Source: Dictyostelium discoideum
Taxonomy: Eukaryota
Direction of reading: 5' to 3'
Length of the DNA stretch: 64,000 nt
Assembly: GCA_000004695.1 (NCBI GenBank)
Contig: CM000151.3
Location: 5,856,001 to 5,920,000, forward strand
The notes under the pieces are model-generated. The model had not been told where the DNA came from, made no database searches, and saw nothing but the letters and a program-made list of their open reading frames with translations. A program made the translations under genes and the position numbers. Of this stretch, positions 50,889-52,030 are shown one piece after another. Numbering within the stretch: position 1 is the stretch's first letter; every line of letters begins with the position of its first letter.

Positions 50889-51571
50889 GGTTAAATTGTA
50901 AACACCCTATTAATAACTCTAAAGGATTCATTTTTTTTTTTATACATTTTCATTTTTTTTTTTTTTTTTTTTTTATTTACCCATAAATAATTTAAGTTAA
51001 CCTGGATTGGTCTGTATATTTTTAATATTTTCTTTCTTTTTCTTAAAAAAATTGTAAATAAAATCATTTTCTTTCTTAATATCTTAAATTTTTTTTTAAT
51101 AATCATTATCTATTGTAATTAATATGTAATTTGCAGTATATTAATTTTAGTGGTTTTTTTTTGATTTTTTTTTTTTGCGTTGTATGAATTGCTGGTTTTT
51201 TTTTTATTGATCGGTTTGTATTTCTAGCCGATTTGCCAAGGATTGCCTGTATTTTTTGAGGCGAGCCATCTCCAGTTGAGCTTACTTATTACGAAGGAAG
51301 GCCAAGATTCTAACCAAAGTCTGTGAAGTTTCTTATGTAAAAGGCTTTTTTTATTTTAATATCGATTAATCAGTGTTTATCCATTTAAGGATATAAACAG
51401 TAATTAATAGTTTACTAATGATTTTTAATTTTTTTATAGTTATTATTTTAGTTTATCATCTAATAGAGAATTTATATTTTTTTATAAAAAAATAACAAAA
51501 CCAACAATAACACTATTTTATATAGTTTTAATTACTATCTCCTTTTTTTTTATGAAGACATTTTATTACTG

Positions 51572-51629
<58 letters not shown>

Positions 51630-51910
51630 TTATTTTATTTTTAGATGAATTGGTCGAATGAGATAAGATTCGTTAGCACTGATTCAGAATACAATATACT
51701 TTGCAAGTTAGTTTTCTTAGTTTGATTATTTGTATATGGAAATCTTTTGGGTCGTTAAAATTACTTGGATCTTTTGAAAGAGTTAATTTTGAGTCTTTTG
51801 CTTTTTTTATAAATTTTAGGGTGGCTAGTTTGTACCATTTATTATTTAAGCATTTTACATATGAGTAGTACTTTTTAGTTTAGATTTTTTTCAAACATTT
51901 GAAAGTTTTA

Positions 51911-51936
51911 TCGTACGGGAATCGAACACTTGCACC
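51911..51936 (-). promoter_or_regulatory. External B box (exB) downstream of the tRNA-Gln gene
   Basis: The minus strand reads ..TGGTGCAAGTGTTCGATTCCCGTACGA. It is a second B-box/T-arm-like GTTCGATTCCC element about 23-45 bp 3' of the tRNA. It is not part of a complete tRNA. Extra downstream B boxes of this kind are a known feature of Dictyostelium tRNA genes. Confidence 0.5.
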
Positions 51937-51958
51937 ATTTAAATTTTATTATAAAAAT

Positions 51959-52030
51959 GGTTCTACTGAGACTCGAACTCAGATTACAGGATTCAAAGTC
52001 CTGGGTGCTAACCAATTACACTATAAAACC
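51959..52030 (-). tRNA. tRNA-Gln(UUG): tRNA-Gln (anticodon UUG), 72 nt
   Basis: The minus strand reads GGTTTTATAGTGTAATTGGTTAGCACCCAGGACTTTGAATCCTGTAATCTGAGTTCGAGTCTCAGTAGAACC. It folds as a 7-bp acceptor stem, D arm, anticodon stem CCAGG/CCTGG with loop CTTTGAA (anticodon TTG), and a T arm (TGAGT TCGAGTC TCAGT) with an internal B box GGTTCGAGTCTC-like. Confidence 0.85.

Follow-up and report, generated by a model that had tools for sequence, protein, structure and literature searches.

A tRNA-Gln(UUG) gene of Dictyostelium discoideum, its external B box and a TRE3-type retroelement remnant downstream

Background

Many tRNA genes of Dictyostelium discoideum are followed by a copy of the B box that lies outside the gene. 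This external B box (exB) is found at 66% of D. discoideum tRNA genes, about 41 bp downstream, has the consensus GTTCRAnYC and is without the GTC signature of the internal box (PMC3159450). A review puts the proportion of tRNA genes with an external B box at about 80%, and describes how the non-LTR (long terminal repeat) retrotransposons TRE3 integrate 40-150 bp downstream of tRNA genes, oriented like the tRNA and guided by its internal or external B box (PMC5911963). Here we analyze the surroundings of a tRNA-Gln(UUG) gene in a 64,000-nucleotide stretch of D. discoideum DNA (GenBank assembly GCA_000004695.1, contig CM000151.3, positions 5,856,001 to 5,920,000; hereafter the window, in whose numbering all coordinates are given unless another locus is named). 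Downstream of this gene we find an exB, a decayed sequence that by homology belongs to the TRE3 type, and a non-coding patch of raised G+C content that is most likely inert. We think it probable that these three together make up a standard Dictyostelium tRNA neighbourhood.

The tRNA gene and its external B box

The only tRNA called by ARAGORN in the 64 kb is tRNA-Gln(UUG), and its Rfam score is far above the gathering score (Table 1); this is a bona fide tRNA gene. On the minus strand it is followed by a run of five T residues (51953-51957), which fits a terminator for RNA polymerase III (Pol III). Starting 22 nt and ending 47 nt beyond the 3' end of the tRNA is a 26-mer, GGTGCAAGTGTTCGATTCCCGTACGA, which is the reverse complement of the window sequence at the exB. 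Its core, GTTCGATTCC (51918-51927, 31 nt beyond the tRNA), fits the B-box consensus GTTCRAnYC. In the 64 kb 1.04 sites with that pattern would be expected; there are three, and besides the exB they include the tRNA's own B box. The core is preceded by GCAAGTG and does not carry the GTC signature of internal B boxes. A snoR09 hit obtained from Rfam over the B box (E 9.6) was judged a chance match.

Syntenic loci were compared from D. firmibasis (L003), D. citrinum (L004), D. dimigraforme (L005), D. cf. discoideum (L006) and a divergent D. discoideum strain (L007). The tRNA-Gln sequence is 100% identical across six Dictyostelium genomes. At the orthologous tRNA the consensus core of the exB is kept in five of the six, and its flanks cannot be aligned between species. 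The retention of the core between diverged flanks is a pattern that fits purifying selection on the exB. TFIIIC would bind there. In having a consensus copy about 30 nt past the tRNA, without the GTC signature and conserved in relatives, the locus is like other Dictyostelium tRNA genes with an exB, and no difference from them was found. The element is an already known, common feature of these genes. A preliminary description of the window, made from the sequence alone, had named the tRNA-Gln(UUG) and had likened the downstream B-box copy to an exB, and both assignments hold.

A TRE3-type remnant beside the tRNA gene

The gap between the exB and the G+C-rich patch is filled by a sequence (~51346-51880) that the homology described below identifies as the 3' part of a non-LTR element of the TRE3 type, co-oriented with the tRNA. 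Its orientation, its protein homology and its oligo(A) terminus are as in elements of this type, and its place downstream of a tRNA gene agrees with them. It was compared with loci carrying relatives of the reverse transcriptase (RT) open reading frame (ORF) that is found downstream of the same tRNA-Gln in D. dimigraforme (L008 and L009 among them), and with L130 and L131, the loci of proteins P0174 and P0178. In blastn searches, read in the sense of the minus strand, 51562-51843 matches L009 at 8798-9083 (73%, E 7e-37), the matches in L009 extending to 9142, and for 51346-51455 there are five matches at 74-85%, four of them in L009 and one in L008. The remnant further matches L131 at 7740-7941 (81%, E 1e-49) and at 8446-8511 (85%), and there is a weaker match, of 70%, to L130 beside a tRNA-Leu.

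The 3' untranslated region (UTR) of the remnant holds an (AAT)n expansion and terminates in ...GATTAATCGATATT at 51358, where the decayed oligo(A) tail follows. In a multiple alignment the terminus ...GGATAAACACTGATTAATCAATATT is common to all copies, then comes an A run and then unrelated DNA. Five other copies stop at the same ...ATTAATCAATATT before their own A runs and unrelated flanks; the oligo(A) terminus is a fixed one.

The assignment at the protein level proceeds through a chain of matches. The ORF fragment of the remnant matches the end of the ORF in L009 (blastp, 52% identity, E 7e-21), the L009 fragment matches a truncated element beside the tRNA-Gln of D. citrinum (E 1e-19), and the D. 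citrinum element matches TRE3-type ORF2 proteins at their C-terminus, among them P0137 of strain AX4 (E 4e-8). When the remnant fragment was used as a phmmer query on the whole protein library, 16 Dictyostelium proteins were matched. One of these, P0174, is a 503-aa piece of ORF2 with RT and CxxC zinc-finger motifs that ends ...CIQESVLPNLISFDQFI. Homology to ORF2, the APE-RT-zinc-finger protein of TRE3, is reached through this chain and concerns a C-terminal fragment only. When the window was searched directly, the TRE3 ORF2 profile gave a weak hit, which ranked first (E 0.1).

The setting of the remnant also agrees with that of its relatives. Sister copies lie downstream of tRNA-Trp (twice, in L009), tRNA-Phe (L008), tRNA-Pro (L131) and tRNA-Leu (L130), and in the P0174 and P0178 loci the family, with both ORF1 and ORF2, lies downstream of a tRNA-Pro and a tRNA-Leu and is oriented as they are. 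The remnant and tRNA-Gln are both on the minus strand, and the same co-orientation is seen in L008, L009, L130 and L131. The distance from the tRNA at which homology begins is 79 bp when measured by protein (51879) or 115 bp when measured by nucleotides (51843); the 5' junction is blurred by deletions and lies between ~51850 and 51910. In its place downstream of a tRNA gene, its co-orientation, its ORF2 C-terminal homology and its oligo(A) end, the remnant is like members of the TRE3 family (TRE3-A to TRE3-D), which also have sister copies beside other tRNA genes, new copies stacking between the tRNA and older ones. It differs from them in that only the last ~0.5 kb is left, with internal deletions and no clear target-site duplication (TSD).

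The best TSD candidate is a gapped match of ~12/16 between ATAAAACTTTCAAA and ATAAGAAACTTCACA, which is not conserved in D. cf. discoideum or in the divergent strain. Another, ACATCAGAAAC, read from D. cf. discoideum, was rejected, as in the alignment with the divergent strain this string is interior to the element. Just outside the ends of the remnant are two inverted 14-mers, CTTATGTAAAAGGC (51323-51336) and GCATTTTACATATG (51850-51863), that are complementary at 12 of 14 positions; as meaningful flanks these were judged compatible with chance in AT-rich DNA. An Rfam hit to sR33 at 51638-51684 (E 1.6) is antisense to the retroelement ORF and was likewise taken to be a chance match.

History of insertions at this tRNA gene

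Copies of the remnant in the two closest genomes help to reconstruct its decay. The divergent D. discoideum strain has a longer copy, collinear with L131 6878-8503, and D. cf. discoideum has a copy with different deletions. Because the 3' end of the remnant and what follows it are common to the window and both of these genomes, the comparison points to a single old insertion that would have kept at least ~1.6 kb of the element and was later eroded by deletion to ~0.5 kb. The order of events that we infer is as follows. Pol III factors on the tRNA gene and on the exB, a TFIIIC-type element ~30 nt past the gene, would have served as the landmark for TRE3 integration. One 5'-truncated TRE3-type integration may then have taken place in the ancestor of the D. 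discoideum complex, and deletions since then would have left the ~0.5 kb found here (~51346-51880). The insertion would also have moved the pre-existing DNA of the patch (51177-51345) away from the tRNA.

Other lineages have their own insertions. At the orthologous tRNA-Gln of D. citrinum (L004 12270-12790, minus strand) a different TRE3-type fragment directly follows the exB and has a clean 11-bp TSD, CTTTCCTCAAC. D. dimigraforme has an element with a 1147-aa RT ORF at the same tRNA-Gln. These comparisons show that this tRNA-Gln was hit independently in at least three lineages. At a D. discoideum tRNA-Phe (L008) there is a TRE3-type insertion with a clean 18-bp TSD, ATTTCACCCACAGTTAAA (5985-6002 and 8588-8605).

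Table 1. Features at and around the tRNA-Gln(UUG) gene, in coordinates of the window
Feature	Position	Strand	Basis or remark
tRNA-Gln(UUG) gene	51958-52030	-	ARAGORN; Rfam RF00005, 67.4 bits, E 3.6e-14 (gathering score 29)
External B box (exB)	51911-51936	-	Sequence, pattern scan, conservation, published consensus
TRE3-type non-LTR remnant, 5'-truncated and internally deleted	51358-51879	-	blastn, blastp, shared 3' end, protein hits
ORF2 C-terminal fragment of remnant	51676-51879	-	blastp
Decayed oligo(A) tail of remnant, AAAATAAAAAAA (A4TA7)	51346-51357	-	Comparison of terminus with other copies
G+C-richer patch	51177-51345	none	Non-coding; directly abuts oligo(A) of remnant
A12-TC-A9 run at far edge of patch	51154-51176	-	Sequence; present in L006 and L007
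Candidate small RNA gene (~140 nt)	~52912-53055	-	Upstream element (DUSE) and cross-species conservation; 0.9 kb away
dsRBD-like gene, on one side of the locus	49995-50888	+	297-aa protein
Metallo-beta-lactamase-fold pseudogene, on the other side	~52177-52690	-	In-frame stops

The G+C-rich patch: composition, coding and conservation

For measurements of composition we removed stop-free stretches of at least 70 codons, a crude mask for ORFs; the remaining DNA of the window has a mean of 15.0% G+C (standard deviation 5.6%). The 175 nt at 51171-51345 have 37.7% and are the top among the non-ORF stretches of the window; the patch is conspicuous only because true Dictyostelium intergenic DNA has ~15% G+C. 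The peaks that come next, among them the tRNA itself, are at 0.31-0.32, and another non-ORF stretch with raised G+C (~0.31) is at 35992-36177. The patch is 613-787 nt downstream of the tRNA, in accord with the preliminary description, which had pointed to a stretch of unusually high G+C 500-800 bp downstream. It starts at the base next to the oligo(A) of the remnant and is not part of that element, since beyond the tails of the other copies the DNA is unrelated.

Protein coding in the patch is excluded, on the evidence of the aligned sequences, because there are stops in all frames and frame-breaking indels; the indels between strains are of 1, 2, 3, 12 and 17 nt. An additional exon of the neighbouring dsRBD-like gene was considered and rejected: the position of the stop varies between strains, the donor GTAATT is GTCATT elsewhere, and the gain would be only 3-4 codons.

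The patch is 90.5% identical to its counterpart in the divergent D. discoideum strain and 85.7% identical to that in D. cf. discoideum, with 10 and 59 gap columns. In three other species, D. firmibasis, D. citrinum and D. dimigraforme, the surroundings of the orthologous tRNA gave no homolog. The AT-rich block beside it (50991-51170) is better conserved, at 96.6% and 92.2% in the same two genomes, than either the patch or the last 29 coding bases of the dsRBD-like gene. These values bear on an alternative in which the patch and the AT-rich block are a long 3' UTR or regulatory region of the dsRBD-like gene, or else plain flanking DNA from before the insertion that has no retroelement ancestry. 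The whole block 50881-51495 is collinear and conserved in both genomes and contiguous with the 3' end of the gene, and gene and patch share their phylogenetic distribution within the D. discoideum complex. However, D. dimigraforme has the dsRBD-like gene and no detectable patch, and the patch contains many indels. A UTR of at least 450 nt with 38% G+C would also be unusual for D. discoideum. We regard this alternative as unlikely.

The G+C-rich patch: tests for an RNA gene

The preliminary description had also suggested an unannotated small RNA gene in the patch. Small RNA genes of D. discoideum such as the snRNAs and the class I/II RNAs depend on the DUSE (Dictyostelium upstream sequence element), for which we used the pattern [AT]CCCA[CT]AA, expected ~63 bp upstream of the start (PMC3188802). 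With these genes the patch shares its raised G+C and nothing else: a DUSE at about -63, a conserved motif or structure and conservation across species are lacking. The nearest DUSE-like octamer on the plus strand (50979-50986) is ~190 nt upstream rather than ~63 and is mutated in D. cf. discoideum; on the minus strand there is none near the patch, and the motif is not enriched in the window. The class I/II motif CCTTACAGC was not found in the patch. A search of the patch with Infernal/Rfam, as the preliminary description had proposed, matched no family, either at the gathering threshold or at E values up to 10 when the patch was searched alone.

Tests of structure agree with this result. The minimum free energy (MFE) of the patch was no better than that of shuffled sequences (z +0.09 on the plus strand and +1.68 on the minus strand), and RNAalifold on three orthologs gave a positive covariation term and no compensatory pairs on either strand. 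One neat hairpin loses an arm in both of the closest genomes. The T7 run at the plus-strand end of the patch is absent from the same two genomes.

Several more specific readings were tried and rejected. A U5 loop-1 (GCCTTTTAC, minus strand) and an Sm site (ATTTTTTGAGG, plus strand) have no Rfam match, and both motifs are mutated in D. cf. discoideum and in the divergent strain. Resemblances to a tRNA D arm and A box on the minus strand are not called by ARAGORN and are not conserved, and for C/D-box and H/ACA readings there are no exact boxes.

The patch does have the highest G+C of the non-ORF stretches, its conservation relative to the two closest genomes is 86-90%, and in this genome the T7 run ends it on the plus strand, all of which might be expected of a young, lineage-specific small non-coding RNA gene. 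Against such a gene stand the lack of an Rfam family or class I/II motif, the misplaced and in D. cf. discoideum lost DUSE-like octamer, the fold scores, absent compensatory pairs and deleted hairpin arms, the loss of the T7 run in the two closest genomes, and the absence of the patch from three sister species in which the RNA gene candidate nearby is nearly invariant. We consider it very improbable that the patch is such a gene. It is just as hard to credit that the patch, being neither debris nor UTR, is transcribed as a young element confined to the D. discoideum complex, for example by read-through of Pol III or driven by the exB, or as a retroelement fragment exapted as a source of small RNA beside a TFIIIC site.

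The G+C-rich patch: origin

We conclude that the patch is most likely inert and non-functional, consisting either of the remains of an older insertion or of the flank present before the TRE3-type insertion; of these two origins an older insertion is favoured. The A12-TC-A9 run at its far edge could be the tail of such an insertion, as A/T runs are common in this genome only a tentative pointer.

A more specific version of this explanation would make the patch the 3' end of an older, heavily truncated tRNA-targeted element, tailed by the A12-TC-A9 run and pushed outward by the later TRE3-type copy. Its family would be one outside those compared, such as a further TRE3 subfamily, the TRE5 3' module, or an LTR piece of Skipper-2 or DGLT-A. 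Before that insertion the patch would have been ~100-280 bp from the tRNA, inside the landing zone of TRE3 and Skipper-2 (PMC5006619, PMC5911963). L009 and L130 show such tandem pile-ups. The A-rich run follows the patch on the strand of the tRNA, an AATAAA lies within it, and the patch is specific to the D. discoideum lineage. On the minus strand, one frame also has three collinear weak resemblances to the C-terminus of TRE3 ORF2 (H..LW, ES..PSF and N..W...NP), followed by a stop. However, the BLASTP E values of these are 2.5 or worse, A runs are commonplace in the genome, no second copy of the patch was found in the ~220 kb of Dictyostelium DNA compared, and none of the elements compared gave a significant match by nucleotides or by profile. 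A direct reading of the patch as a TRE3 ORF2 C-terminus was rejected as not significant (resemblance to P0137, E 2.5). An older element of this description is a possibility we hold tentatively, at somewhat less than even chances.

The preliminary description had taken the high-G+C stretch at 51150-51450 for a possible fragment of a tRNA-targeted retroelement, such as a TRE3, TRE5 or DGLT-A terminus. A retroelement fragment is indeed present, but at ~51346-51880. The patch itself matches neither of the two TRE3 families compared (5' UTR, ORF1, ORF2 and 3' UTR) nor the partial TRE5 in L008.

Some observations weigh against the interpretation of the locus as an exB with a decayed TRE3-type copy and an inert patch. 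No convincing TSD for the remnant was found at the locus. Neither blastn nor nhmmer found a second copy of the patch in the window or the compared loci; profiles of the TRE3 ORF2 C-terminus gave nothing significant on it. Finally, the conservation of the patch is somewhat above that of the 3' end of the remnant (~83%), which leaves room for weak constraint.

A candidate small RNA gene nearby

A sequence on the minus strand on the other side of the tRNA gene (Table 1) has the features of a DUSE-dependent small RNA gene that the patch lacks. A DUSE, TCCCATAA, is located at 53116-53123 on the minus strand, ~60 nt upstream of the candidate. Its core hardly varies; overall identity is 96-97% in D. 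cf. discoideum and the divergent strain and 84-86% in the three species D. dimigraforme, D. citrinum and D. firmibasis. Relative to the flanking protein genes, the tRNA-Gln and the candidate of D. firmibasis (L003 12637-12710 and 13561-13780) are inverted together. Because it is inverted with the tRNA relative to the gene there, the candidate is not the UTR of a neighbouring protein gene. It folds into two hairpins with AGAACA between them and ends ...ACAACUUU before a T run, and in these respects it resembles an H/ACA RNA. The z-score of its single-sequence fold is -1.55, and Rfam gave no match to the candidate at E values up to 5.

Other features in the window

The dsRBD-like gene and the metallo-beta-lactamase-fold pseudogene enclose the tRNA locus. 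The 297-aa protein of the former, which includes a long Asn tract, has an exact match in a D. discoideum assembly (L001), and the gene upstream is the malate synthase of D. discoideum AX4. The dsRBD-like gene is present in the D. discoideum complex and in D. dimigraforme. The syntenic site of D. citrinum and D. firmibasis either lacks it or has it in decayed form; in D. citrinum a short stretch, ...QLILDF..., resembles part of it by eye. A homology search with the protein gave no hits. The metallo-beta-lactamase-fold gene is a pseudogene here because of its in-frame stop codons (...LAKR*ISRFEG...ESL*THLHPDHWDE...); its D. dimigraforme ortholog is called intact, as a 263-aa Lactamase_B_2 protein.

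Far from the tRNA, at 27715-27850 on the plus strand, is a near-perfect long hairpin with a perfect core of ~28 bp (AAAAAAATTCATTCTAATGGTGGTTCCA ... TGGAACCACCATTAGAATGAATTTTTTT), an MFE of -56 kcal/mol and a z-score of -9.6. The non-ORF stretch around it has 32% G+C, and a DUSE-like TCCCATAA is located at 27688-27695. Possible identities are a precursor of a hairpin RNA or of a miRNA, and a small inverted-repeat element. A repeat finder run on the whole window returned low-complexity families only, and when metagenomes were scanned with a conserved 17-mer, all matches to it were chance ones.

Conclusions

Beyond annotation the significance of this locus is small, since its arrangement is of an already described kind. 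A G+C-rich non-coding patch in a very AT-rich genome is by itself no evidence of an RNA gene; it is conservation across species together with a correctly spaced DUSE that separates the candidate at 52912-53055 from the patch. The locus illustrates the well-described arrangement in which a tRNA gene and its exB form a safe landing site for TRE3 retrotransposons, whose old copies, as the comparison across genomes suggests, are eroded by deletion.

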